NCBI GenBank assembly: GCA_010015585.1
Contig: ML975159.1
DNA: 64,000 nt
Strand: one strand, 5' to 3'
DNA from: Eremomyces bilateralis CBS 781.70
Lineage: Eukaryota
A model generated the notes under the pieces. The model did not search any database, was not told where the DNA came from, and saw nothing but the letters and a program-made list of their open reading frames with translations. The translations under genes and the position numbers were made by a program. Each line of letters starts with the position of its first letter. The stretch's first letter is position 1. Shown here one piece after another: positions 1 to 58,189 of this stretch.

Positions 1-1816
1 AGGGTGCTGTACACCTAGCTCCTTCTCCCTCCCTTCTAGCGCTCGCCGGTTCAGCTTCTCCGCCTCCGAGTACTTCCCCTGACTTTGCAGCACCAACGCC
101 AGGACGGTAACACTTATTAGTGTCAATTGGTCGTCCTGCCCATTTGCCCTCTCTCCAGCATTCAGCGCCTTTATTGCTATGTCGTGTGCTATCTTATACC
201 TCCCTGTCATCCACATATACCACGCAGAATTTGTAAGAATCTTAGCCCAGTCTTTCAAAAACTTCTCAGTCACCGGCTCTGCGCCATATAACGATTCAAC
301 ATGCGGAAGCAGTTGCTGGCACTTCGCCCAGTTCTTAAACTCGCCGTTGGGAAGCTCTCGTGCCATTAATTGTACGAATTGTTGCTTCCACCACTCCGCG
401 TCGCTAAACGACGATAGCCAGATCCGTGTGCAGAACTGCACCAGGGCGTGCATCTCACACACGTCAGTCTCGGTTGTCGCAGAAACAAGGGAGTAAGCTT
501 GTAAGGTATCAAAGTCTTCGTCGAATTCATTATTAGCCTCGTCTTCGCAGCCTGGTTTTGCCACTGTCCTACTGACTGTCCTACTATGCCTTCGAAGTAT
601 AGACTCTGGAATTCCTTGGGGGTTAAAGAAGCTCATAAGCGATAGCAAGTCTGCAGCAGAAGGCCGTTCTTTACGGATACGCTCAAACGATATCTGCCAC
701 GTCGTTACCACCGAGTTAGATGCACTATCATCCCTACGGATATCGTCTATATCCCAATTTAGGAGATTTTCTCTCTTGTTATTGTTTCTTCGAAACTCGT
801 CGAGGTACTTAGAGATCGTCATTCGAGCTCGCCGGTTGATGTATGCAGCGGCCTGGGTGATTGCAAGAGGGATGTAGTCGAGAGCACGCAGCAGATCAAT
901 TGTGTCGTCGGTCAACGCGTCCTGCAGTAGCTTGTTTCGGAGGAGCTGTAGGCCTTGGGCCTCGTCCATTGCCTGCACCTCCTTGATATTCTTATAGCCT
1001 CCTGCTAGTCCGGCTGCTGCATCCTTGTTCCTAGAAGTGATCAGGATCGATCCGTTGGGGCTCTGCGGGAGGTAAACCGCCAGCGATGCCGGCGGGCTTT
1101 CGGACGGCTTGTCTTGCTCGCCCTTGCGCGACGAGAAGGTCTCGACGTCGTCGACGTTGTCGAGGACCATTGTCCATTGGCCGTTTGTTTCCTCGCATAG
1201 CCAGTTACGGACTAGCCGTAAAATATCGGCCTTCGGATTCTCTCGCCCCGGAAGCTCTAACCTGTCTGCAATATCTCTGTACGCTTCTTCAAATCGGGCC
1301 TTAGTACTAGCGTATACCCAGAAGATGGACGTTTGCGGCGATGTATCGCGGATATCGTAGCAGTATCGGATAGCTATTTGCGACTTCCTACCTGCTATTA
1401 GCCTAATAGTGTAAAGAACAGATACTAACATACCCTACGCCGCCAAGGCCGACGAGCGCGGCGCGAGCGCCCGGTCTTGCGCAGTTGTCGTGGATCCACG
1501 CTAGAATGTCCGGCCGGTCGACGAAGTCAGGGTCTGGTGCGAACGGGACGGTGGAGAAAGGGGTGCGTTTTCGGCTCGGTCCGTCTGTGCGCTGGTTTAA
1601 GCATTGATATTTGATATTTGATAATAGATATTGGGTGGTCATGAATCCTATGGTGTGCTCACTTGAAATAATGAAGTTCGTCGTCCCGCCAGCCGCAGTG
1701 GTCGTCCCGGCAATGACGGTGTCACCCTGAATGCCCCCAGTGAAGTCGCTCGGTTGTTGCATGCTTTGACTCGGATAACTCAGATGCGAGGCAGGCGAGG
1801 TGTTTCTTGTGGACAT
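1..1816 (-). CDS. NLR-like STAND protein (short N-terminal putative amyloid motif + NB-ARC + TPR); 3' end runs off the window
   Basis: ATG 1816; introns 1662-1585 and about 1433-1388. Spliced P-loop GLGGVG|KSQ, Walker B MVLDNVDD, ILITSRN, YIPLAITQAAAYI, EMHALVQ, then TPR unit QGKYSEAEKLNRRALEGREKELGVQHP at the window edge. No stops seen in the last exon. Confidence 0.9.
601..1474. repeat. Inverted repeat arm 1 (partner 3680-4553)
   Basis: Reverse complement aligns without gaps to 3680-4553; about 19 mismatches by manual count; P-loop intron identical. Confidence 0.95.
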
Positions 1817-2195
1817 CTATTCGCACTCAAAGTAGCAGCTAAGGAGTGACCAGACCCCCGCAGTATGGCGCCTCGCCGTTATATAAGTCCAGTTTTCGGA
1901 GCTTGTCAAAGTTGAGGCTGTGACGGAATATTATCGAGCCGATACCAGTCGTTACAGCGCTCTCCAATCGAGTTTATGTGGTCCATGCATGCAGGATGAA
2001 GCCACTCTGCCACTGGAGTCTGGAGACCACTGACCACGCGCGAGTGGAAGACCCCGCATGCTATGGGGGCGGAGTTGACTTCGTCGAAAATAGCCTCTTA
2101 TGGAGAGCATGTTGGCGTCTTGTCCTCTACCTTCTTTCCAGCCCAGCAATTTACGAAGATACAAGCTGTCTCAACCAGTTTCATTCAATATATGT
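1817..2195. promoter_or_regulatory. Putative shared divergent promoter of the two NLRs
   Basis: About 380 bp between divergent ATGs; TATA-like ttatataag at about 1879-1887. Positional inference only. Confidence 0.45.
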
Positions 2196-5100
2196 ATGGC
2201 GTTCTGGAAGCTGTCGAAGGGCAAAGGAGGTGCTCAGACGGCCCTTGCCGAGCCCCCAACAGATGAGCTATTCTCAACGGTTGGAGATTATGGCCTTCAA
2301 ACGCTATCCGAGAGCGTGGATGACATTATCGAGTAAGCGATCTAGCATACCTCATTAACTCCGCCAACCAGTAAAATCAGCATCGTTTTCGTCCACGGTT
2401 TAACCGGCAATCGCGAATCGACTTGGACCGACAGGACTGGCAACGTGTTCTGGCCAAAAGATCTACTCGCAAAAGATCTCCCAAAGGCGCGAGTCATCAC
2501 GTTTGGCTACGATGCCGATATCGTTCGAGGATTGAGCACGGCCGGAAACAGTACACTCAGAGACCACGGGAAAGCTTTGGCTGAGGACCTGGCTATGCGG
2601 AGGAAGAAGACAGATTCTGTAAGACTTGTTGCGGCGCAATTTAAACCAAGAGCTCTAGCGACGCAAGAGTGTCGTCCCGGCGCACATACCGGGCATTTAC
2701 GGTCTTTGCTGTGATGCACGTCAAAAGAGCCGCAAAGAGCTGTCGCCGAAGTAGCCGACATATATTGTTGGAAGGCCGTTAGCAAACGCTGACTCAAGTA
2801 ACAGAACCTTCGTCCTCTGATCTTCGTTGCGCATAGCCTTGGTGGATTGGTTGCTGAGCAGGCGAGTGATCCTCCAATATATTTACCAGCTACCAGTCCA
2901 CTAATACCCCAGTGCAGGCACTGCTTGTCTCTCGCGGCTCGGCCCAGCAGCATGTTAAGGACTTGCTTGAAAGCACCGTGGCGATTGCGTTCATGGGTAC
3001 TCCACACCTCGGATCGAATATTGCAAATTGGGGACATCCAATCTCGAAACTTTCAAACCTGCTGCGCAAAACCAACTCCAAGATTGTAGGAGTATTACAG
3101 CCGGGCTCTGAAATGCTCGCCACGGTCCAACAAGAGTTTCATATCATGCTTGACGACCGAGGTAGAAACGACAACAAACATATTAACATCTTTTGTTTTT
3201 ATGAAGAAGTCGGATACCCTGGGCTCGGCGAGGCATGCAATTCCTCTAATATCCTCTATAGCCGAATTCTAGTGCTAAGCTCTTACAGATAGTACCGAAG
3301 CAATCAGCGATCCTTACGGCGTATCCAAACATTGGCATTCATGCAACCCACACAGGGATGACAAAGTTCAAGACTTCCGAGGACGCCGGCTATGTGCGAG
3401 TACATGATCGGCTTTGGCTCTGGTATAATATTGTTGAAAAGAGCGTGTGTCCGGTCCCGCGCCCGAAGACCAGGATGCAACAAACGAGCAACTTCAACTT
3501 CGGAGTCCCGTCAAGACAAGGTAGATGCTCTCTCGGAACGTAGCTAACCCGTGGCTAACACCAGTGCAGAGGGGGCAAGCCGAGAACGGAAGCCCTTCTC
3601 CACCGTCCCGTTCGCACCAGACCCTGACTTCGTCGACCGGCCCGATATTCTAACGTGGATCTGCGACAAGTGTGCAGGGCCGGGCGCTCGCGCCGCGCTC
3701 GTCGGCCTTGGCGGCGTAGGGTATGTTAGTATCTGTTCTTTACACTATTAGGCTAATAGCAGGTAGGAAGTCGCAAATAGCTATCCGATACTGCTACGAT
3801 ATCCGCGATACATCGCCGCAAACGTCCATCTTCTGGGTATACGCTAGCACCAAGGCCCGATTTGAAGAAGCGTACAGAGACATTGCAGACAGGTTAAAGC
3901 TTCCGGGGCGAGAGAATCCGAAGGCCGATATTTTACGGCTAGTCCGTAACTGGCTATGCGAGGAAACAAACGGCCAATGGACAATGATCCTCGACAACGT
4001 CGACGACGTCGAGACCTTCTCGTCGCGCAAGGGCGAGCAAGACAAGCCGTCCGAAAGCCCGCCGGCATCGCTGGCGGTTTACCTCCCGCAGAGCCCCAAC
4101 GGATCGATCCTGATCACTTCTAGGAACAAGGATGCAGCAGCCGGACTAGCAGGAGGCTATAAGAATATCAAGGAGGTGCAGGCAATGGACGAGGCCCAAG
4201 GCCTACAGCTCCTCCGGAACAAGCTACTGCAGGACGCGTTGACCGACGACACAATTGATCTGCTGCGTGCTCTCGACTACATCCCTCTTGCAATCACCCA
4301 GGCCGCTGCATACATCAACCGGCAAGCTCGAATGACGATCCCTAAGTACCTCGACGAGTTTCGAAGAAACAACAATAAGAGGGAAAATCTCCTAAATTGG
4401 GATACAGACGATATCCGTAGGGACGATAGTACATCCAACTCGGTGGTAACGACGTGGCAGATATCGTTTGAGCGTATTCGTAAAGAACGGCCTTCTGCTG
4501 CAGACTTGTTATCGCTTATGAGCTTCTTTAACCCCCAAGGGATTCCAGAGTCGATACTTCATAAGCATAGTAGGAACGGGGCAGAATTAAACGGCGAAGG
4601 CGAGGCTGACGCCGCCTTCGAAGAAGACTTTGATACCTTACGGACATATTCGCTTATAGCAGCGACAGCCGAGACCGATATCTATGAGATGCACGCGCTA
4701 GTGCAATTCTGCACGCAGGTCTGGCTGTCGTCGTTTAGCGAGGCGGGGATATGGAAGCAAAGGTTTATAGGGCTGATGGCACAGGAGTTTCCAACTGGGC
4801 AATTCGAGAACTGGGGGAGGTGCCAGCAGTTACTTCCGCATATCGAATCCCTATACGACAAAGAGCCGGCGACTGACGAGTCCTTGAAGGACTGGGCTCA
4901 GATTCTTACAAATGCTGCATGGTACATGTCGATGATAGGGGGGTATAAGAGAGGACAAGACATAGCAGCAAAGGCGCTTAAGGCTAGAGAAAGGATATGT
5001 GGACAGGAAGACCAGTTAACACTAATAAGTGTTACCGTCCTAGCATCAGTGATCACAAGCCAGGGGAAGTACTCGGAGGCAGAAAAGCTGAACCGACGAG

Positions 5101-6236
5101 CGCTAGAAGGGTACGAGAAGGGGCTAGGTGTACAGCACCCAGATACGCTGACGAGCGTGGACAACCTGGCGGGCGTACTGAAATATCAGGGGAAGTACTC
5201 GGAGGCGGAGAAGCTGAACCGGCGAGCGCTAGAAGGGAGGGAGAAGGAGCTAGGTGTACAGCACCCNNNNNNNNNNNNNNNNNNNNNNNNNNNNNNNNNN
5301 NNNNNNNNNNNNNNNNNNNNNNNNNNNNNNNNNNNNNNNNNNNNNNNNNNNNNNNNNNNNNNNNNNNNNNNNNNNNNNNNNNNNNNNNNNNNNNNNNNNN
5401 NNNNNNNNNNNNNNNNNNNNNNNNNNNNNNNNNNNNNNNNNNNNNNNNNNNNNNNNNNNNNNNNNNNNNNNNNNNNNNNNNNNNNNNNNNNNNNNNNNNN
5501 NNNNNNNNNNNNNNNNNNNNNNNNNNNNNNNNNNNNNNNNNNNNNNNNNNNNNNNNNNNNNNNNNNNNNNNNNNNNNNNNNNNNNNNNNNNNNNNNNNNN
5601 NNNNNNNNNNNNNNNNNNNNNNNNNNNNNNNNNNNNNNNNNNNNNNNNNNNNNNNNNNNNNNNNNNNNNNNNNNNNNNNNNNNNNNNNNNNNNNNNNNNN
5701 NNNNNNNNNNNNNNNNNNNNNNNNNNNNNNNNNNNNNNNNNNNNNNNNNNNNNNNNNNNNNNNNNNNNNNNNNNNNNNNNNNNNNNNNNNNNNNNNNNNN
5801 NNNNNNNNNNGAGAAGCTGAACCGGCGAGCGCTCGAAGAGAGGGAAAAGGAGCTTGGAATAGATCATCCTGATACACTAACTTCCGTCTACTGCCTTGCC
5901 TATCTTTTACACAAGCGCAGGCGATATAGGGAGGCGTCCGAGCTCTACCAGAGAGCATCCAATGGCTACAAGCAGAAGCTCGGTTCCCAGCACCCGAAAA
6001 CTATTGCGTGTCTTAATTATTTTACAGCTATGCAACAGGAGGCAGGGGAGGAAAGACAAGGACTGAGCAGGACATCAGTTGATAATGATAAAGAGGAGCT
6101 TAGAGAGATACCCACCGATGGTGCTAGTATTCTGCATGGCAGTGAGGCTATGCCTGAGCAAACCAGCAGCTTGAAGAGCAAAAATGACTCATTTTACACG
6201 CACTTGAAAACGAGGATGCGTAGAAAAGATCTATAG
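2196..6236 (+). CDS. NLR with N-terminal SesB-like alpha/beta hydrolase + NB-ARC + TPR repeats (all-in-one architecture)
   Basis: Spliced: IVFVHGLTGN..TW, FWPKDLL, RVITFGYDA, LIFVAHSLGG (nucleophile elbow), FMGTPHLGS, CFYEE, HATHTGMTKF. A phase-1 intron (3521-3569) joins in frame to EGASRERKPFSTVPF, followed by GLGGVG|KSQ, ILDNVDD, EMHALVQ and TPRs. Introns 2333-2380, 2619-2803, 2862-2917, 3233-3288, 3521-3569, 3721-3766. N-gap 5267-5810. Confidence 0.88.
3680..4553. repeat. Inverted repeat arm 2 (partner 601-1474)
   Basis: Same alignment as arm 1. Confidence 0.95.
5020..5990 (+). repeat. Highly conserved 126-bp (42-aa) TPR tandem array, partly in an assembly gap
   Basis: Units QGKYSEAEKLNRRALEGxEKxLGVQHPDTLTSV at a 126-bp period; gap 5267-5810 lies inside the array. 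Confidence 0.9.
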
Positions 6237-14482: not shown

Positions 14483-17163
14483 ATGCCAGCGGCCATTGCT
14501 CACGCTGACCTGGCGCCAATTGTCCAACGGGTACGAATATACGGCCCAAACCCTTCCTCCCTCGCTAACATCCATCTAGATCGTCCTCACCTCCTCCGAA
14601 ACCGACTATGTCGACCAACTCATCCCCATCATCAAAGATGCCCGCACCCCCGATCGCGCCGGCCGCCTCCTCCACCACTTCGATGCCCTCGCCGCCGACC
14701 GCGAGACCGAAATCGAGCGCATGTGCAGCACAAACCACCAAGACTTCGTGAAGTCCGTCAATGACCTGCTGCGCATCCGCGAGGGGACCGCTGAGCTGAC
14801 GTCGGAGATCCTCGGGCTCACGGAGACGATCCAGTCGAGCACGGAGCAGCTGGCCGCGCAGAAGAAGGCGCTGGTCGAGTCGCGCAGCGTGCGGGAGAAC
14901 ATCGACGACGCGACCAAGGCGCTGAACGCGTGCTTGGACGTGCTGCAGTTGGCGAACCAGGTGCACGACCTGCTGGCGAAGAAGAAGCACTACGCGGCGC
15001 TGCGCGCGCTGGAGGAGCTGCAGAACGTGCATCTGCGGGAGATCAGCCGGTATAAGATAGCGGAGATCATCGAGAAGTCGGTACCGGCGACGCAGAAGCT
15101 CATCGCGGAGGCGGTCATGACGGATTTGAACACCTGGCTTTTCCGCATCCGCGAGGCATCGCAGTATCTGGGGGAGGTAGCGTTCTACCATACCGAGATG
15201 CGTAAGGAGCGGATGAAAGAGCGGACGGAGCAGGACGACTACATGGCGAAGTACGGCCTCAATTCGGCCGTGGAGCTCGTCGCAGACGAGATGGACGAGT
15301 TCGACATCTTGAACAACGAGGAAACGGACGTGCAGATCGACTTCTCGCCGCTCTATGAAGCGGTGCATATTCACGAGACGCTTGGTCGATACGATCAGTT
15401 CCGCGCGGAGTACGCGGCGACGAGACGGAGACAGAAGGACCTGCTGGTGCCGACGGCGTTAAATCTCCGGGACGAGGACGTCGCCGATTTGAGCAGTATT
15501 CTCGAGGGCATTGCCGGCTTCGCCATTCTGGAGAGAGCGACAATGATGAAGACGGATAATTTGCGAGCTGGAGTGGATGTAAGATGGCCTCCTGATACTC
15601 CTGCTGTCATACTAACAGGAGCAGGTCGACGAATTATGGGACTCGATGTGCCGTGCCGCGATCACATTAATCTCCAATAACCTTCATGACGTCGATAAGG
15701 ATGAGACCTTGCTCAAAATCAAGGGACGAGTGGCTCTGTTCATCCAAACCGTGGATGTAAGTGACCACTGCGACGGTATTGACCGAGTAAACCGCTGATT
15801 GTGTATAGACATGGGGATATGCGACGTCCTCTCTCCATTCACTTGTCCTTACTATTTTCGACAATTACTCGAAATTGCTGAAGCGGAAATTCAGCGAAGA
15901 CTTTGAGGAGGTACGTCGTTGTTCGCTGTGGGACGGATCTGCCATTGACACTATGTAGATTGTGACGACGGACGACTATATGCCAATGCCGATCAATACC
16001 CTGGAAGAGTATGACAAAGTGGTTGAAGTCAGCTGGTATAATCCGGACACCGATCGTTCCGACCTCCAGTATGATTTCCCAGCGATGTGGGCATTTCTGA
16101 GCGCTAACGCGGAGATGCAGATTTCCTTGTGTGCTACCATTCTCTCAAATGTACCCCCTCTGTTGTATCGACATCCGCAACTTCCTGAACCAAATCTATC
16201 TTTTCTCGGACGATGAGTTCGAACGAGCCAACGTGATCGACGAGACGTTGAAAAGGGTACGCTCACCTGTGCCTTGCATCGAATCTCGCTAACAGCTGTA
16301 GTCACTGGACGAGCTATTGTGTGACAAGGTGTGCCAGACGCTGGTGGATCGACTCAGCTCGCAATATCCCGGCCAAGTCGTCCAAATCCTTACGAACTTC
16401 GAGCACTTCGAGACCGCTTGTGAAGAGCTGCAGAATTTGCTTTTTGACGCTCGTTCATCACAGTCTGCCAGCGGGCCAGTCATCCTACAAGCGACCGAAA
16501 GGTTCAGAGAAGGACGGAAGACGGCTGAAAAGCGGATATTCGAGCTTGTGAACTCGAAGATCGACGACCTCATCGAGACAGCAGAATACGACTGGTAAGT
16601 CTTCCGCCTCTAGCTCAGACCGTATAGCCAAGAGCTAATCACATCTATTTAGGATGACACGAACCCCTCCTGGCCGCAAAAAAGTCAGCAACTACATGCA
16701 AGAACTCACCCGCTACCTCGACGACTCCATGCACTCCGCGCTCCTCGGACTCCCCACCGAAATCAAAGAACTCATCTACTTCGACGCCCTCTCCCACGCT
16801 GCCACCAGCATCCTCTCCCTCCCGCTCGACTCCTCCGTCCGGGGAATCTCCCCCGCCGCCATCCAAACCCTCGCCAACGACGTGCAGCACCTCGTCGACT
16901 TCGTCGATGGCCTTGGCAACCCGATTCTCAAGGAAAACCTGGACGAGCTGGTGCAGACGGTCGCGCTGATGCAGAGTGACACGCCGGACGAGTTCTACGA
17001 CGTGAGTCAGCGGAACAAGAAGTACGGGCGGGTGGATCGGGAGCACGGGGCGATTTTGCTGGAGAAGGTGATGCAGGGACAGGTGGCGCCGTTGCAGCCG
17101 AGTCAGTCGTATAAGCAGGATGCGTTTGCGATGATGAGTTCGCGGTTTGGGTTGAATAAGTGA
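14483..17163 (+). CDS. SEC15: Exocyst complex component Sec15
   Basis: CSTNHQDFVKSV, HYAALRALEELQNVHL, IAGFAILER, LPFSQMYPLCCIDIRNF, QVVQILTNFEHFE, RIFELVNSKIDDLIETAEYDW; about 7 introns. Confidence 0.93.
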
Positions 17164-31892: not shown

Positions 31893-32326
31893 CTTGCCAG
31901 GAGAATGAGAATGTTACAGCAGTAAGCACCTGTAGATGCCCTCACACCATAGAATAATGCACCGGCTCTTGTGTAGTTGTGTAGTTGTGCTCCCATCGTT
32001 CTGATTTCGAAGTGGCGTTGAGGCGGAAGGCGATGACACGTGACTCAGCCCTACGGTACTACCGGCGGTTGCCCTACCAACGGCTCCCATGCACCACAAC
32101 ACTCCAGCCAGGCACATGAAACACTCCACCAGAGACCACCATCTTTCCGGCTTGACTCCATCTCAACTCTGATTCAATGTCGCTTGAAATCAATCGATAC
32201 TCTATTTTGGAACTTTTGGAGCCATTATTTCCTGTCCCGAGCCTAAAAAGTCTTAGCTTCATCGTGTCTTAAACAATCTGCCTCTATCAACAAAGTTTAT
32301 AGTGCATGCGACGATAGATTCCGCCC

Positions 32327-35300
32327 ATGGATCCTTCCAACGACCCGCCCGGGTATTCTGGCCCTCCAGCATATGAGGATGACAGTTCAGATATTACAGG
32401 TGCCCGCCACCATGGTGCATCAATGCGACTACTCGCATCCGGAGACGATGGCAGTTACAGACCGTCAGTACCCCAGCCTTCATCTCCCTCTGTCAGCATT
32501 CCTCCAGCAGCTCTTCCAAGACATTCCGCGCTTTACCGTAGGGAAGTACCCAACCACCGCCAGGCCGTCGAGGTAAAGGTCGAGAAAGCTCTCAAAGAGC
32601 TTCTGGACGAAGCCAAGCAGACGTTCATGGCCGAAGACCAGAAGACATATCGCGGTGCTAATCATCTCAAATCTCCCGGCTTGCCGAATGCTTCTCCTCT
32701 CCGTAATCAAGTTTCCTTCGAAGAGAACAACAACTCATATGCAAGCAACAACAGACCTTCCCCGATCCGCTCCTACCGCCGCCCGATCTCGTCGCTCAGC
32801 CATTCGCGCTCCGGATCCGTCCTCGACCACGCCCCCGATATCCCCCCGCCACAGACGGATGCACCGCCGTACATGCATTCGCGGTCGCCGTCATCTCTAT
32901 CGCGCCATTCGCCCACTCGCTCATGGACGCCGTCCCGTGCTTCGACCGGAGATTGGACCCGTCCGCCCGCATCGAACGTGCCATATGAACCGGTCGACAT
33001 CAACGGCAGCCCCAGGCCCGGCACGCCATCTTCGCACTATGGCGGCAGCCCGAAACGGCCGTTGCCGCCCGCGCCATTGTTTGCGGGAGGTAGGCCGATC
33101 TCAAGAGATTCTGCGAGTGGTGTCGACATGACCACGATCCCGATCAACGACGGTGACGACCCGTTCGGTTCGTCGATCGGCGGGACTAGAACTCGTCCGG
33201 ATCTCACCAACAGAGAATCTTTCATGTCAGAAGACACATTCACATCGGACAGCTACCCGGAGAAGGAGTTCGCTGAGAACTATGGACCGGCGCCTGACGG
33301 AGCTCAAACTCGGCGCGGCGCGAGAGAGGCTCTGATGACCAAGAAAGAAGTACGCCTTGTCAACGGTGAACTGATTCTTGAGTGCAAGATCCCAACCATC
33401 CTATACAGCTTCCTTCCCCAGCGCAGCGAGGTTGAGTTTACTCACATGCGCTACACCGCCGTGACCTGCGATCCGGATGATTTCGTCGACAAAGGTTATA
33501 AGCTGCGACAGAACTTCGGAACGACACTACGAGAAACAGAGCTGTTCATCTGCGTGACCATGTACAACGAAGACGAGATCGGCTTCACGCGCACGATGCA
33601 CGGGATTATGCGCAACATTAGCCACTTCTGCTCGAGACAGAAGAGTCGAACGTGGGGTAAAGACGGGTGGCAGAAGATCGTCGTCTGCGTCGTTGCGGAT
33701 GGCCGTGCGAATGTCCATCCGAGGACACTCGACGCACTGGCTGCGATGGGAGTCTACCAGAACGGAATTGCGAAAAACACCGTTAATGATAAGGAAGTTA
33801 CTGCGCATGTATACGAATACACGACGCAAGTCTCCTTGGACGGCGACCTGAAGTTCAAAGGTGCCGAAAAGGGCATCGTTCCATGCCAGATGATCTTCTG
33901 CCTCAAAGAACGCAACGAGAAGAAACTCAATTCCCATCGCTGGTTCTTCAACGCTTTCGGCCGCTCCCTGAACCCCAACGTCTGCATTCTCCTCGACGTC
34001 GGCACCAAGCCGGCTAACACCGCGCTCTACCATCTGTGGAAGGCCTTCGACACCGACTCGAACGTCGCCGGTGCCGCAGGGGAGATCGTAGCCGGGAAAG
34101 GCAAAGGATGGCTCGGTCTTTTGAATCCTCTGGTCGCGTCGCAGAACTTCGAGTACAAGATGTCAAATATCCTCGACAAGCCGCTCGAGTCGGTGTTCGG
34201 GTACATCACGGTCCTTCCGGGTGCGCTGAGTGCATATCGATACCACGCCTTGCAGAACGACGAGACGGGGCATGGGCCGCTCAGTCAGTACTTCAAGGGC
34301 GAGACCCTGCATGGACAGGATGCGGATGTCTTCACCGCCAACATGTATCTTGCGGAAGATCGTATTCTCTGTTGGGAGCTGGTCGCGAAGCGGAATGAGA
34401 GATGGGTGTTGAAGTATGTTCGGAGTGCGAAAGGCGAGACGGACGTGCCAGGTAAGCAATATCTCTAGAAATGGGGAAGAGATAACGCTGACAGCCGTTA
34501 AAAGATGCCGTTCCTGAATTTATTTCTCAGAGAAGACGCTGGTTGAATGGCGCGTTCTTCGCCGCGGTGTACTCCCTCCTCCATTTCAAGCAGATCTGGA
34601 GGACGGATCATTCGGTCTGGCGCAAAATCCTTTTGCATATCGAATTCGTCTACCAGGCAATTCAACTCGTCTTCACATACCTATCACTAGTAAGTTTCCG
34701 CTATGAAATACTGAGCAAGCACTTACCGATATAGGCAAACTTCTACCTCACCTTCTACTTCATTGCTGGATCCCTCGGAGATCCAGAGATGGACCCGTTT
34801 GGTCATGGGATTGGAAAAATCATCTTTTTCATCCTCCGCTACACGACCATCCTCCTAATCTGCACGCAGTTCATCTTGTCGATGGGAAATCGACCGCAAG
34901 GAGCCAAGCGCATGTTCCTCGCGTCGATGGTCATCTACTCCATCGTCATGGCATACACGACGTTCGCCAGTCTCTACATCGTCATCAAGCAGCTAAAAAA
35001 CGCTGATTCAACCTTGGGAATAGGCAACAACCTCTTCACCAACCTCGTCGTCTCCACCCTCTCCACCATCGGCCTCTACTTCATCATGTCCTTCCTCTAC
35101 CTCGACCCCTGGCATATGTTCACCTCCTCCGCGCAGTACTTCGCTCTCCTCCCCAGCTACCTCTGCACCCTGCAAGTTTACGCCTTCTGCAACGCCCACG
35201 ACGTCACCTGGGGCACCAAAGGCGACAACATCAGCCGCACAAATCTCGGCTCCGCGCGCGGCACCGGAAAAAACAACGTCGTCGAGGTCGAGATGCCCTC

Positions 35301-40268: not shown

Positions 40269-42500
40269 ATGGCAGGCAGACGAGTCCTCGACGTCTCCAA
40301 GCTCGTCTCCGCGACCCGACACATCGCGAAAGCTCACCTCGACCTCCGGAGTCGCCAATATGACGTATTCGCAAAGACATCCACCCTCGCCAAGGCCGCG
40401 AAGAACCAGACGGATCGAGTCACTGTGACTCTCAGTGCCGCCATCGCGATCGCACAGCGACTGGCAGAAGAGCCAATCAACAGCGGGACAACGGGTCCGC
40501 AGACACACGGGACGGATGGAAGTGCGAGTCCGCGAGGGCAGGCTTCGACAGGCGAGCGACCGAAAGATGCCTCGGGGATAAATCAAGACCATCATTACCA
40601 GCCGTCGGAGAAGAATGCAGCGTTCGAACCGGCACCGATTTCGGATCTCAAGCCGTCGCAGGAACAGGCTGGTAGACATGCACTTCCAGACGGGACAATT
40701 CCGTCAGAAGGGTTGGATGCAAGGGAAGAGACGGCAGGATATGACACGTATGGTCGAATTCCAGCTACAGAGACTGCAAAATCTCCACTGGAGGACCAAC
40801 GGACCAAGGTGGTCATACCGCAACGAAGTTCTGCTGTACAAAGATCGGAGGATGGGTCTATCAACGCCGACACATTCGGTACCGCGAGTGCAGATACGCA
40901 GAAAGCTGTGCTGGAGGATACTGCAGCTGAAGAGATACCAGAAGGCATCGACATCAATGTCTTCCGTACGACGCGAGGAAAGACGCTCCTTGGTTCCTCG
41001 AAACCATCTCAAGAACCGAAATCTACAGCCACGCAAATAGACGCAGCACCCGATGACATTCAGCAGCTCGCCAAAGCTATCGCGGAGGACCCCATCGCGG
41101 AGGACCCCATCACCCAACCCTCCACCACCCCCCAACCANNNNNNNNNNNNNNNNNNNNNNNNNNNNNNNNNNNNNNNNNNNNNNNNNNNNNNNNNNNNNN
41201 NNNNNNNNNNNNNNNNNNNNNNNNNNNNNNNNNNNNNNNNNNNNNNNNNNNNNNNNNNNNNNNNNNNNNNNNNNNNNNNNNNNNNNNNNNNNNNNNNNNN
41301 NNNNNNNNNNNNNNNNNNNNNNNCAACATGACCCGCCTCGTCGCCAAGCTCTCCCGCATGCGCGGCGCCGCCCTCAAGCTCGGCCAGATGATCAGCTTCC
41401 AAGACCTCAAGCTCCTCCCCGGCCCCATCCAGGACGTCATGCAGCGCGTCCAGGACAGCGCCGACTACATGCCTGCGCGCCAGCGCGACCGCGTGCTCGC
41501 CACCAGCCTCGGCGCCGACTGGCGCGACGCGTTCGCGGAGTTCGACGAGGTGCCCATCGCCGCCGCGTCGATCGGCCAGGTGCACCGGGCGACGCTGCGC
41601 ACCGGGGAGACGGTCGCGGTGAAGGTGCAGTACCCCGGGGTAGCGACATCGATCGACTCGGACCTGAACAACCTCTCGCTTCTGCTCACCGCATCGCGCC
41701 TGCTGCCGCGCGGGATGTATCTCGAGAAGACCATCGCGAACGCGCGGACGGAGCTGGCGTGGGAATGCGACTACGTGCGGGAGGCGGAGTGCGGGACTCG
41801 CTTTCGAGAACTACTCGCCGACGACGACGCGTTCACCGTCCCTCAGGTCTTCCCCTCCGCGTCCGGAAGAGAAGTCCTCACCGCCGAACTCATGCACGGC
41901 ACCGCGGTCACAAAAATTCCCGACTTATCCCAGGACGAACGCGACTGGATTGGCACCCATCTCCTCCGCCTCTGCCTCCGCGAGATCACTGAGTTCCGCT
42001 ACATGCAAACTGACCCCAACTGGACCAACTTCCTCTACAACCGCGCCACGCACAAGCTCGAGCTCCTCGACTTTGGCGCCACGCGCGCGTATCCGCTAGA
42101 ATTCATCGGGCCGTATGTCGGCATCCTCCGCGCCGCCGCCGCCGACGACCGCGCCACCATCCAATCCCTCTCCGTACAGCTTGGTTACCTCACGGGGTCC
42201 GAGAGCGCGGCGATGGTAGACGCGCACGCCGACTCGGTGCTGGCACTGGCAGAGCCGTTCGGTGCGCAGGCGGACGCGGTGTACGATTTCCAGGACCAGA
42301 CGATCACAGAGCGGGTGCGGGGGCTGATTCCGACGATGTTGAAGGAGCGGTTGGCGCCGCCGCCGGAGGAGACGTATAGTCTGCATCGGAAATTGAGTGG
42401 GGCGTTTTTGTTGTGTGCGAGATTGGGGAGTCGGGTTAGGTGTAGGGAGTTGTTTGAGGGGGCGGTGGAGAGGTTTGAGGGGAGGAAAGGGGAGGTGTAA
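40269..42500 (+). CDS. COQ8: Atypical kinase Coq8/ABC1 (N-gap 41139-41323)
   Basis: LSRMRGAALKLGQ, PIAAASIGQVH, VAVKVQYPGV, MQTDPNWTNF, LLDFGATR, PPPEETYSLHRKLSGAFLLC. Confidence 0.95.
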   Translation: MAGRRVLDVSKLVSATRHIAKAHLDLRSRQYDVFAKTSTLAKAAKNQTDRVTVTLSAAIAIAQRLAEEPINSGTTGPQTHGTDGSASPRGQASTGERPKDASGINQDHHYQPSEKNAAFEPAPISDLKPSQEQAGRHALPDGTIPSEGLDAREETAGYDTYGRIPATETAKSPLEDQRTKVVIPQRSSAVQRSEDGSINADTFGTASADTQKAVLEDTAAEEIPEGIDINVFRTTRGKTLLGSSKPSQEPKSTATQIDAAPDDIQQLAKAIAEDPIAEDPITQPSTTPQPXXXXXXXXXXXXXXXXXXXXXXXXXXXXXXXXXXXXXXXXXXXXXXXXXXXXXXXXXXXXXXNMTRLVAKLSRMRGAALKLGQMISFQDLKLLPGPIQDVMQRVQDSADYMPARQRDRVLATSLGADWRDAFAEFDEVPIAAASIGQVHRATLRTGETVAVKVQYPGVATSIDSDLNNLSLLLTASRLLPRGMYLEKTIANARTELAWECDYVREAECGTRFRELLADDDAFTVPQVFPSASGREVLTAELMHGTAVTKIPDLSQDERDWIGTHLLRLCLREITEFRYMQTDPNWTNFLYNRATHKLELLDFGATRAYPLEFIGPYVGILRAAAADDRATIQSLSVQLGYLTGSESAAMVDAHADSVLALAEPFGAQADAVYDFQDQTITERVRGLIPTMLKERLAPPPEETYSLHRKLSGAFLLCARLGSRVRCRELFEGAVERFEGRKGEV

Positions 42501-47823: not shown

Positions 47824-50432
47824 ATGCCCAACGAACTGCGGCGCTCACGCTCCGTCGCCTCCGCCTCAACCCATACCGCTCCCATCCCCCCATCGCGCGC
47901 ATCGACTGCGAGTATTCCTCCCGACAATCATCAGGCGGGCTTCGACCTCCATCCGCCGCAAAATTCCTACCCCAACCCCCCCAACACCGAATCGTTCGAG
48001 CTGCTCCATAACATGACGCAGTTAATGGAGATGGACCAACGGCAAATGCAGCAGGAGCATGGGTTCCAGCCCGGGATGCAGGATGAAAACATCCAATTCA
48101 GCCCCACGCGTGGCTTCTCAATGCCAGGGCAATTCCAGTCTGGGATGAACGATTTGGGGCAGTCGATGAACGGCAATGAGTTCGGTTCGCATCAACCCCA
48201 GCATGGCATGGATATGGGGAATAACTTCCATGCCGTGATGCCTCCTTCGGTTGTAGAACCGGAGGAGAAGAAGAGGAAGGGCAATTCGTCGAGCGCGACA
48301 AATGATAAAGAGCTCCGTGAAATGCTGTCAAGGAACAATGAGCGATCCTTGAAAGATGTTGCTACAGAAGTCATCAACACGGAAAGAACTCCACGAGCAG
48401 AAAAGTCGAAGCAACTCTTTGCAATGCTATGGTATGGAGGACCTTTGACAATATCCATGAATCAAGACTAACAATATGAAGGTTGAAAAGCGCGTGCGCT
48501 GTTGCGAAACGATCAACACCCCGAAGCAGAGTGTATACCGCATATGCCGAAAGTTGCGCGACGGAACGAGTAATCCCTCTCAACCCAGCGTCGTTCGGCA
48601 AGCTCGTTCGTGTCATCTTCCCCGGAATCCAAACACGAAGACTAGGAGTCCGAGGAGAGTCGAAATATCATTACGTTGATTTGGTCCTGAGAGACGAGAT
48701 CCCGCACTCTATGGAACGTTCCGGCAGCATCGCAAGCAATGGACGAATGCGAGGACCATCGGTCAGTCACACGATCGACTTCAACTCAATGCCACGGCTG
48801 CAAGCCGAAACGGCCAGATTCCCTAGTCAAGACCGACCGCTTCAATCCCCTACCCATCACGCCATCGCGAATCCTCCCTCACAAGGCCGACTGTTCACCG
48901 ACCCTTTCTCTCCTGGTCTTGCTGGCAACCATGGATCATTGTCGAGCAGTTATGCCCACACCCTCCAATTTCCCCTGGAAGATTTCAGCCAGCTGGCGGA
49001 TGCTGAGAATGATACGATCTCATTACCAAATATCCATATGTACGCACCACCTAAAACAGACATTGATGCTGCAGAGGCACTGGTCGCTCTGTATCGAACA
49101 CACTGCACTTCCCTGGTGGATTGCGTTCGCTTCTGCAAAGAAAAGCAATTCTTCCGGCTATTCAGCACATTCCAAGGAACGCTCACAGTTCCCGTCCAAC
49201 GACTATTCACCAACCCGACGGTGGCACCGTGGATACGAGAATGCGACTGGTTGATGTACCAGAAGATGATCCGCTTCGTCAGCGCCCTCACCCTTCAAGT
49301 CGCCCCTCCCATCGTCATCAAGTTCCTCGAGCGCGTGTCCCAGAACCTCCACGCCCATATCACCAAGACCTTCGCCGGCCACCCCGCCCACGTCCTCGAG
49401 GCCAAACTCGAACCCGCCACCGTCTTCGCCGGCCTCCTCCACCGCCTCCTCCGCGTTAACAGCACCGCCCACGCCGCCGCCGCCCTCCTCAACGAAGACC
49501 CCTTCCGCGACCAAATGTGGATCGACTGGGTCCAATACGTCAACCCGAAACGCATCATGGAAAGCGAGCTCCCCGGCTGCGGCTACGACGCCGTCTACGA
49601 GATCATGACCCACGATATTCGATCCATGCTCATGCCCACCAACGTCCCTCCCTTCCTCGAAGAAGGCACCTGCTACGAGGACGCCCTCCACGCCAGCCAC
49701 TGGCCCTCCATCCACCGCCTCCAGGAAGACACCCCCGTCGACCGCATCGCCACCTTCCTCTCCAAGCTCCCCGCCCGCTTTCCCACTGCCCCCACCCGCA
49801 CCCTACTCCAATGCATCTCCACCCTCCTCACTGCCGCCCTCCGCGAGATCACCATCCGCCAGGGCTCCAGCTACAACGCCTGGTGGATCACCAAGGTCTT
49901 CGTCGACGAGATGAGCCTTTGGCTCGCCTCTCTCGGCGGGTTCCTCGGTCACCGCATTGAGGCGCCGGAGTCCCTCTCCGCTTCCCCACAGCTGCCCGCC
50001 GAAGGCATCATGCGCGCCACCAGCGCCGCATCGGGGAGCGGCAGCGGACTAAGCAGTATGACCGATGGGATGAGCGCCGAGATCGGCTCCGAGAAAGCGT
50101 CAGCCGTCAAGCCCGAGCGGGGGTCCTTCGAAAGCGTCAACGGTATGTCCCAACCACCCACACACAGCAAGAACCACCCCCTAACCCCCCTCCCCGCAGG
50201 CCACACCACCACCAGCGGCCCCCCCACCACCGACACTCACCTCCCACACCGCGCCTCCCCGCGTCGCCCCGCGCCCGGCCCTGACGCCTTCCTCCCCAAC
50301 ACCTCCGCAGCGCCGCCGCAGGATGCGTTCCGGCCGCCGAAGATTCATGATCTGGGGAAGGTTGGCGGGGCGGACATGGACGATAGTGGGATTGGGATGG
50401 ATTTGATGGATGATTTGGGGGCGGAGGGGTAG
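47824..50432 (+). CDS. RFX-family transcription factor (Sak1/CPCR1-like)
   Basis: KQLFAMLW|L..PRSRVY..PLNPASFGKLVRVIFPGIQTRRLGVRGESKYHY. Confidence 0.92.
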
Positions 50433-56959: not shown

Positions 56960-58189
56960 GCGATTGAAGACGTACCTTATCTCCCGATTCTCGGATTTCT
57001 TTCAAGAGCGAGGCGCTATGGGGCTACTACAGCATGGACGACAAATTGGACTTTGTCTTCAATAGAAAACGGTCTACCCGGATCGCTAAGAATTTTGGCT
57101 TGACAAAGCGATACCACTACCATCTACGACCAAATGACCGCTTTTATTCAACACTCATGCCACTTCCCAAATTTTTCTTATTTTCGATATGAATAGGTAT
57201 TGTTCACTTCACTATTGTTTTCTAGAACTGCTTAATCGGGAAATCCTAACCACGCGACAACATCCTCGCCACTCGGGAATCCAGCTCTCGTCTCGGCTAT
57301 TCGTCGTCGTCAACCCCCAGACTTCCCCGCACCTACACCTCCCCCCACCCCGCCCCCGGCTATCCCAACTCACGCTTTGTCTCCCCTAACGGAATATGTC
57401 CGCTCCACGTCCGTCGTATTCTCACGGCTCCTAATGGAAAACTGCGCTTGTGAGCGCGTTCCACTGTCCCTCCACCGACTACTGCTACCCGTAAACTGCC
57501 AAGTTCGTATCTCCTCGCCTTAGGTCTGGCCAGTGTGAACTATCGAGCTTTGTCAAGGAACCGGACACTCTTGGCATTGGTGAGCTAACGTCGTCGTTAG
57601 ACTCCTTAACTCATTCCCGGCTCCAAACGGAGTATCAGACGGGACAACATGCCACTCATTGTTGTTCCGTTGAATCAAACCAAACGTCCTAGTTAGAACA
57701 CCCTGGTAGATTCTTATTCCCCCCCCCCCCCCCCCCCCCCNNNNNNNNNNAACTATGAATCAACTTCGCCAGTCGCCACCCTTATTCCCGCCAGATTAGA
57801 TGAGACTCAAGGCCACGCATATCCGCTCGACTCGTGATCATCCCCCGCGACCGACGTCAAGGTCGGAGCAACATCGCCCAGTTGCCCCTCCACACTGCGA
57901 ACTCCCGTCCCGCCGCCCACGCTCCTAGAATTTAGCGACCTCGTGGGAAATATGACCTGCATGCACCAACCTGTTCGCCTGCTTCGCCGCCCTCGCCGGT
58001 CTAGACCGTGACCAATCTCCATCCCTCCATTGTCACCGGCAAAATCTGGCCCCACTTCGGTGAGTTCGTTGGCACCGGCCCTTCTGGGGAAACCAACGAA
58101 TGTGGGGGTGATGGAGAAACTTGCTGATGGTCTCGAAACCTGCTCGTCAGCCGTGTGGGAATAGATGGGAATAGAAGGGAATAGGGGGG

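Follow-up and report, generated by a model that had tools for sequence, protein, structure and literature searches.

A head-to-head NLR locus of Eremomyces bilateralis with relics of a putative SesB hydrolase–NLR fusion and signs of gene conversion

Fungal NLRs (nucleotide-binding oligomerization domain-like receptors) are well described in two designs, one with a built-in effector and one in which a separate effector is switched on by a motif (PMC9815663, PMC12258605). SesB-like domains make up 13–14% of ascomycete NLR N-termini and are among the commonest found there, and the NB-ARC type accounts for 287 (30%) of the sesB-like NLRs in the Sordariales (PMC9815663, PMC12258605). Whether the two designs are linked by fusion or by splitting was left open by Daskalov et al. 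2012 (PMC3321046). Here, we describe a locus of Eremomyces bilateralis CBS 781.70 in which both designs lie side by side, namely two NLR genes, A and B, of the type with an NB-ARC domain and tetratricopeptide repeats (TPR), located on opposite strands in the first 6.2 kb of a 64,000-nucleotide (nt) stretch of contig ML975159.1 (assembly GCA_010015585.1; hereafter the window). Gene A begins with a short signalling-type motif and gene B with a SesB-like hydrolase. The reading that we favour, and hold to be moderately probable, is that of an effector-plus-amyloid-motif NLR cell-death locus which was partly shifted from trans to cis by a fusion, with later gene conversion between the two receptors. 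What is new is the footprints of the fusion, both architectures being already known.

Among the described systems, the sesA/sesB/het-eN cluster of Nectria haematococca (PMC3321046) resembles this locus in that a short C-terminal extension of the alpha/beta-hydrolase effector, rich in G, N and aromatic residues, recurs at the N-terminus of a clustered STAND (signal transduction ATPase with numerous domains) protein; furthermore, the gene order and orientation of sesB/STAND pairs vary between species, as they do here. In contrast to the sesB/het-eN pairs, the neighbouring hydrolase at this locus is motif-less and fused to a second NLR, and the nucleotide-binding domain (NOD) is an NB-ARC domain combined with TPR, whereas HET-eN combines NACHT with ankyrin repeats. 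A further counterpart is the PNT1/HELLP/SBP cluster of Chaetomium globosum, where a SesB-like lipase (SBP) is under the control, through amyloid templating, of an NB-ARC-TPR NLR that bears a short N-terminal motif (PMC5485727). However, the PP signature NxGxQxGxN of that cluster is, by inspection, absent from every aligned instance of the motif described here (by contrast, P0131, with PF17046, has NYGLQVGHN), and the window shows no HeLo-like partner.

All-in-one sesB-like-NB-ARC-TPR NLRs share the architecture of gene B, provided that the latter is spliced as modelled. Unlike these, gene B has a hydrolase with 80–88% identity (88–92% for exon 4) to stand-alone, motif-tailed proteins and 40–48% (exon 4) to fused ones, and it keeps a relic start codon and the motif flanks at the joint. 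Proteins made of an effector, an internal motif and a NOD (four HeLo-like with sigma and one HeLo-like with PP; PMC9815663) hold effector, motif position and NOD in one polypeptide, as would be expected from the fusion of a pair; yet they are HeLo-like and their motif is retained, whereas in gene B the effector is SesB and the motif core is deleted. Plant head-to-head sensor/helper pairs (PMC12258605) likewise consist of inverted NLR genes a few hundred bases apart, but the plant partners have diverged strongly, often with a decoy integrated into the sensor, whereas here the cores are 97.7% identical and there is no extra domain. In the Sordariales, a head-to-head arrangement of NLRs is seldom found, with 13 cases in 225 two-NLR clusters (PMC12258605). 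No description of this locus, of a scarred fusion or of gene conversion linking a cis with a trans receptor was found in the accessible parts of the literature on fungal NLRs, amyloid motifs and fusions.

With regard to gene structure, the initial annotation had described two divergent NB-ARC-TPR genes with introns at matching positions, near-identical NB-ARC cores and different N-termini, a short one in A and a full SesB-like hydrolase in B, and the gene models agree with it on each of these points (Table 1). The core identity of 97.7% holds over 260 amino acids (aa), the first exon of A comprises 51 codons and exons 1–5 of B encode the hydrolase. Intron 1 of A and intron 5 of B are both in phase 1 and interrupt a homologous codon, while the 46-nt P-loop introns have the same sequence in both genes. 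The P-loop GLGGVGKS, which follows the pattern GxxxxGK[ST], is formed across this intron in A as well as in B. Together with the C-terminal repeats, the P-loop/NB-ARC region places both proteins among the NB-ARC-TPR NLRs of the STAND class. DUF7779, TPR_10 and TPR_12 were clearly matched in both genes by Pfam, and PF25000 scored 46.5 bits in A (public protein P0031) and 43.5 bits in B (public protein P0019). The NB-ARC family PF00931 was borderline, with 23.8 bits (A) and 23.5 bits (B) against a gathering cut-off of 23.5. The TPR direct repeats are 126 nt long and 90–91% alike. In the public model of the orthologue P0022 from Monosporascus sp., the P-loop intron is kept (residues ~64–84, with extra residues between GLGGVG and KSQ), so the position of this intron is conserved and the P0022 model is probably wrong.

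The model of gene A is letter-identical to P0031 (683 aa) as far as the window reaches. The last two exons of gene B correspond to P0019 (666 aa), which is 5'-partial and starts eight codons past the acceptor of intron 5. Both are annotated in E. bilateralis CBS 781.70 under consecutive accessions, so the hydrolase-coding 1.3 kb between them has no public gene model. The public start of gene A lies 18 codons upstream of an MQQ start (1760–1762, minus strand); this second start is the one used by the Zopfia orthologues P0025, P0051 and P0043 and by the 39-aa protein P0144, and this second ATG may be the true start of gene A.

The short N-terminus of A had been taken for a signalling-type motif, and this reading is supported. 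In BLASTP comparisons, residues 25–51 of A matched residues 355–380 of the 380 of P0004 (E 2e-4) and residues 346–368 of the 372 of P0002 (E 0.002), i.e., the last 24–27 residues of stand-alone SesB relatives, and residues 19–48 matched the first residues of the orthologous NLR P0025 (E 2e-6). Thus, the same short motif stands at the N-terminus of an NLR and at the C-terminus of an effector, which is the arrangement of a two-component system. The common pattern is roughly F-N-G-x-I-x-G-x-x-V-I-x-G ... G-G-T-x-N-F. The sigma motif is defined by threefold submotifs A (GxGxQFNxx) and B (GGTQNINT) over 25–27 aa (PMC3321046); here, we found one B-like unit (GGT.NFN.) at the end and one weak A-like unit (SGAQI) on the effector side. 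Since the threefold A/B pattern is not evident, in contrast to sigma, and the last unit is like submotif B, we label the motif sigma-like.

As to the spread of this motif, table S2 of PMC9815663 gives 'noasm' for an NLR of Talaromyces amestolkiae that carries it, with its NOD set from residue 3, so its N-terminus was probably never examined in that screen. Motif strings were not found in the searchable part of the supplements to PMC9815663, and they may still be in the remainder. A phmmer search with the 51-aa exon 1 of A gave six matches at E up to 0.001, of which one was related (P0144, 39 aa) and five were repeat proteins; the library comprised 1.84 billion representatives, a size for which a 51-aa query is too short. 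Similarly, when the last 60 aa of P0001 were used in a word-indexed search, this returned only the query itself among 8000 candidates and is uninformative on the spread of the motif. A T in place of N is found in residues 33–38 of A (DTVIAGT) and in residues 354–360 of P0002 (HTMISGT), whereas the other instances have RNVISG., which hints at co-evolution of the two motifs.

The first five exons of gene B align over their full length with stand-alone proteins of the DUF676/SesB family (360–380 aa), and its nearest relatives are proteins of this size that end in the motif. One of these, P0002, is encoded on another contig of the same genome, of a different length (641,277 against 743,134), and is the only motif-tailed SesB seen in this genome; it is 87.8% identical to the B hydrolase and scores 33.2 bits on PF05057 (cut-off 20.3). 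Identity to proteins of a Leotiomycete, a Eurotiomycete and another Dothideomycete is 80–82%. Among 18 relatives of exon 4, 12 are stand-alone proteins of 190–380 aa with 60–92% identity, and the six long, fused ones are the distant group mentioned above; in a search restricted to proteins of 187–2000 aa, the best match of this exon reached 92% and none was identical. The nucleophile elbow is present as AHSLGG, following the pattern GxSxG. Furthermore, of the 80 columns in which eight homologues show no variation, 79 are conserved in B, and the single lost column lies in the motif. Against the metagenome locus L011, the closest DNA relative (261 codons), synonymous divergence (dS) is 0.456 and non-synonymous divergence (dN) 0.066, with a dN/dS ratio (omega) of 0.14. 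Pfam scans of the single exons 2, 4 and 5, as opposed to the spliced product, gave no DUF676 match.

Across Dothideomycetes, Leotiomycetes and Eurotiomycetes, this SesB/DUF676 clade (2196–3444 compared with P0001–P0004) is 80–88% identical, an exceptional level for an accessory gene of cell death, and the effector-NLR pair may have been transferred horizontally.

At the 3' end of the hydrolase half, gene B bears the marks of a joint. Homology to SesB ends at 3444, both in the protein and in the DNA compared with L011, about 65 codons before the ends of the stand-alone hydrolases. The 30 nt that follow in frame may be the former 5' leader of a downstream NLR. Next to them stands an in-frame relic ATG which corresponds to the start codon of the orthologues; the bases around it match exon 1 of A at 22 of 25 positions. 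The relic peptide, MQQTSNF-NFGVPSRQ, equals the Zopfia orthologue P0025 at 12 of 15 residues. About 22 residues, the motif core, are missing between the two NF repeats, and both motif flanks are kept. The tail NFG.PSRQ recurs in four of the seven other aligned NLR N-termini (P0025, P0051, P0144 and, more loosely, P0043) and is absent from A; the relic was therefore not copied from present-day A.

Table 1. Positions of the two NLR genes, their parts and the sequences between them (coordinates in the window).
Feature	Position	Strand	Remarks
Gene A exons	1816–1663, 1584–1434, 1387–1	minus	built from sequence; leaves window
Gene B exons	2196–2332, 2372–2618, 2805–2865, 2913–3232, 3289–3520, 3570–3720, 3767–6236	plus	stop-free reading
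Gene A exon 1	1663–1816	minus	51 codons + 1 nt
Amyloid-type motif (predicted), gene A residues 25–51	1664–1744	minus	BLASTP and alignment
Gene A intron 1	1585–1662	minus	78 nt, GT..AG, phase 1; public model P0031 splices same site
Gene A exon 2	1434–1584	minus	linker and NB-ARC start, to GLGGVG
Gene A intron 2 (P-loop)	1388–1433	minus	46 nt, splits P-loop codon GG/G
Gene A exon 3	1–1387	minus	NB-ARC from P-loop lysine, winged-helix (DUF7779), post-NOD helical segment, first TPR units
Intergenic region between both start codons	1817–2195	.	379 bp
Gene B hydrolase half (exons 1–5 while SesB homology lasts)	2196–3444	plus	SesB/DUF676-like
Gene B introns 1–4	2333–2371, 2619–2804, 2866–2912, 3233–3288	plus	gene model
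Junction stretch	3445–3474	plus	30 nt, in frame as VCPVPRPKTR
Relic NLR first exon	3475–3520	plus	MQQTSNF then NFGVPSRQ
Gene B intron 5	3521–3569	plus	49 nt, GTAGAT..CAG, two CTAAC branch sites, phase 1 (predicted)
Gene B NLR half	3570–6236	plus	exon 6 3570–3720, intron 6 3721–3766, exon 7 3767–6236; stop 6234–6236
Putative gene-conversion tract	3680–4575	.	partner arm 579–1474; 22 differences

In relatives, the two components are found as separate neighbouring genes. In Talaromyces amestolkiae, both the accessions and the locus tags of the SesB-motif and motif-NLR genes are consecutive; in Tricladium varicosporioides, their accessions are. At L011, the hydrolase ends in the motif with a stop at 1597 and is followed, after a 454-nt spacer, by a same-strand NLR that starts with the motif. 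L001 has TPR coding downstream on the opposite strand, and L012 is a fused form that is only distantly related (37%). In the window, such adjacency of motif-NLR and motif-effector is missing, as the hydrolase beside A, i.e., that of B, has lost its motif. Neither PF05057 nor PF12697 appears in the Pfam columns of the NLR relatives (0 of 120 listed, inspected by eye), so that a fusion is unusual in this set. The motif match, the stand-alone motif-tailed relatives and the neighbouring pairs elsewhere together make the earlier proposal of an ancestral pair of motif-NLR and SesB-motif genes, later fused, well founded.

The simplest history would be that of a tandem SesB-motif and motif-NLR pair joined by one deletion, plus an in-frame deletion of the motif core. 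The ancestral order would have been NLR-A on the minus strand, followed on the plus strand by a SesB hydrolase with a C-terminal motif and, in tandem with it, by the motif-NLR NLR-B. A deletion of a few hundred bases would then have taken the SesB linker, motif and stop codon together with the spacer, so that SesB codon ~308 and a site lying 30 nt upstream of the NLR-B start codon became joined in frame. A second, in-frame deletion between the NF-coding repeats would have removed the ~22-aa core of the NLR-B motif. Later gene conversion between the inverted neighbours would finally have evened out ~0.9 kb of NB-ARC.

Sequencing reads bear on the splicing of gene B. We used runs X1 and X2, which are DNA of one sample, are probably the source reads and were assembled separately, and run X3, which is RNA by guess; the guess is supported by its one spliced joint, and no listed run is on record as RNA. 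This joint, 2618>2805 (GT..AG), is found in X3 and in neither DNA run, and intron 2 of B (186 nt) is thus spliced there. X3 also holds an unspliced contig across intron 2 and a contig across the whole intergenic region, so that DNA or pre-mRNA is present in it as well. One X3 contig (3898–4115) carries the B-specific base at 3987, and two others carry the A bases at 3848 and 3881. Two loose ends were seen: 19 letters before 3205 (hydrolase exon 4) in an X1 contig, which may come from the paralogous P0002 locus, and one at 1663 (the donor of A intron 1) in an X3 contig, which is like the start of A exon 2 with 2 of 14 letters different and may stem from an error at the contig end or from the transcript of a further paralogue.

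Several points weigh against the proposed fusion of an amyloid-motif system. No read or contig links the hydrolase exons to the NB-ARC exons, X3 having a gap in cover at 2953–3771 that includes introns 4 and 5 and the junction. The public annotation has B as a 5'-partial NLR and leaves the hydrolase half unmodelled. The donor of intron 4 is GC in B and GT in the DNA relatives L011 and L015, and the frame stops if this intron is kept. The donor of intron 5, GTAGAT, appears weak compared with the usual fungal consensus. When 135 codons were compared three ways, synonymous and non-synonymous codon changes numbered 18 and 12 on the branch of B, 13 and 4 on that of L011, and 7 and 4 on that of L015, with eight codons ambiguous. 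By these raw counts, the non-synonymous share is somewhat higher on the branch of B, which also spans a period older than the fusion. Most of the constraint measured in the NLR half likewise dates from before the fusion, and that half may look healthy owing to conversion from A. No Pfam motif family was matched, in contrast to the sigma motif, either by A exon 1 (E up to 1) or by the full proteins (E up to 0.1), and the amyloid nature of the motif is putative. The proposed order of three ancestral genes is drawn from relatives rather than from a syntenic sister genome.

Part of this evidence would be accounted for if gene B were a dead or dying remnant, the deletion having destroyed the effector motif and the promoter region of the NLR, and the long frame owing its survival only to the recent date of the event and to conversion from A, which would patch the core. 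The incomplete public model, the change of the intron 4 donor from GT to GC, the loss of the motif core and a non-synonymous share that is the highest of the three lineages are all in line with such decay. However, the 3.6-kb frame over seven exons is stop-free, nearly all invariant hydrolase columns are kept, omega is 0.14–0.27 in every segment, and X3 holds both the spliced intron 2 and the B-specific NB-ARC contig. On balance, we consider decay of gene B improbable.

Gene B might instead yield two products, a motif-less hydrolase that ends at 3541–3543, where the frame stops after seven codons if intron 5 is kept, and an effector-less NLR started at the relic ATG from an internal transcription start. 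The relic ATG is indeed in frame and matches the orthologue start, and intron 2 is both spliced and unspliced in X3, so splicing is incomplete in that run. Yet no output is known for an NLR that lacks both effector and motif, and intron 5 has two perfect CTAAC branch sites; that no transcript ends or starts were seen near 3445–3570 is a weaker objection, as RNA cover is lacking there. Two separate products therefore appear quite unlikely to us, and we retain the predicted single fusion protein as the more plausible product.

The divergence between A and B is uneven along their length. The inverted-repeat arms 579–1587 and 3567–4575 differ at 40 of 1009 bases, whereas the arms 2–573 and 4569–5140 are 78% complementary. 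Within the former, 18 differences fall in 3571–3679, none in 3680–3847, a stretch which holds the entire 46-nt P-loop intron, and 22 in 3848–4564. Accordingly, dS is 0.077 (omega 0.18) in the NB-ARC core (267 codons of 268 aligned), with 0.033 in its first 130 codons, but 0.40 (omega 0.27) in the first part of the linker exon (37 codons) and 0.72 (omega 0.27) in the post-NOD segment (174 codons). In the latter, A and B share 64% identity, while each is 70–72% identical to the Zopfia protein P0043. In maximum-likelihood trees of 22 proteins, picked by hand from the best hits with the other 98 listed proteins left out, A and B are sisters in the core (100/100 support) and in 0 of 200 bootstrap trees of the post-NOD segment. 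Based on the low core dS, the high flank dS and the incongruent trees, the best explanation for the near-identical cores is gene conversion between old paralogues, and not a fresh duplication.

These results go against the claim of the initial annotation that the NLR was copied from A onto the effector, since the NLR half of B has its own relic start and motif flanks, diverged flanking segments and a separate place in the post-NOD trees. Nor did the analysis yield evidence that A and B act as a sensor/executor pair, as the initial annotation had suggested they may. They also make it very unlikely that a recent inverted duplication of A onto the 3' end of SesB was followed by fast diversifying change or by exchange with a third paralogue. 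The identity of the cores and of the P-loop intron and the inverted arrangement would fit such an event, as would the C-terminal tails of P0019 and P0031, which are again very similar. However, dS in the flanks is 5 to 9 times that of the core, the B relic keeps an orthologue-like tail that A lacks, and the post-NOD tree does not pair A with B; with omega below 0.3 in the flanks, protein-level selection cannot explain their divergence. An assembly error as the source of either the inverted duplication or the SesB-NLR junction is hardly credible, as, even though the assembler struggled with the TPR arrays, which are gapped in both genes at the same repeat phase, the arms differ at the 40 bases given above and, beyond that stretch, by 22%, the sequence around the junction is unique, and contigs of X1 and X2 cover 3401–3625 and 1697–2282 without difference.

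Among the differences between the arms (3567–4575 compared with 579–1587), 31 of 40 are transitions, and in 3848–4564 it is 20 of 22. Compared without an outgroup, six of the nine sites at which B has C and A has T are CpA to TpA. This is a bias like that of repeat-induced point mutation, as might follow a conversion that yields two near-identical 0.9-kb copies.

Under the proposed fusion with later conversion, the two receptors would act in different ways. For gene A, binding of a ligand at the TPR sensor would lead to oligomerisation of the NB-ARC domain and thereby to clustering and folding of the N-terminal motifs, which would template the same motif on the stand-alone SesB hydrolase P0002, in trans. 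For gene B, if it makes one protein, the hydrolase would be activated by proximity, with no need for a motif. A mixed A/B signalosome, in which recurrent conversion keeps the cores interchangeable and the two TPR/post-NOD sensors co-oligomerise, is a speculative extension to which we give little weight. If it were true, either ligand would fire the B lipase in cis and P0002 through the motif of A in trans, and B, having lost its own motif core, would be unable to seed in the absence of A, so that the pair would be a fungal counterpart of paired NLRs. In a lesser variant of this idea, retention of intron 5 would give a free hydrolase alongside the fused receptor from one gene.

As a putative fusion that is concrete and datable, the locus has kept its scars in the form of the relic start codon, the motif flanks and the deleted motif core. 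The unfused paralogue with its near-identical NB-ARC, 379 bp away, completes a natural matched pair, which should be useful with regard to the contribution of the motif, the mixing of cis and trans receptors and conversion in fungal NLR clusters. The locus also adds an effector-NLR motif that is missed by Pfam and a conserved hydrolase half without a public gene model. We expect it to be of solid interest to the fungal NLR field and unremarkable outside it.

Three runs of N interrupt the window, at 5267–5810 (544), 41139–41323 (185) and 57741–57750 (10), the first of them inside the TPR array of gene B. Gene A leaves the window at the same repeat phase, and the start of the window is the reverse complement of the bases that precede the gap in B. 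The public models of A and B splice across their respective gaps, and their 683 and 666 aa therefore understate the real proteins.

To the right of the locus, 24 long frames were scanned; none of them was a recombinase or transposase gene, and 12 had a family match. The NLR pair lies at the edge of a region of core genes (14580–15677, 32318–34465, 48480–50429 and their neighbours), with no obvious repeat-rich island. The genes recognised there encode Sec15, a protein with an RNA-recognition motif (RRM), a cyclin, AtuA, a CoA-transferase, a chitin synthase, SARAF, an RFX factor, an acetyl-CoA synthetase and a transporter of the major facilitator superfamily (MFS).

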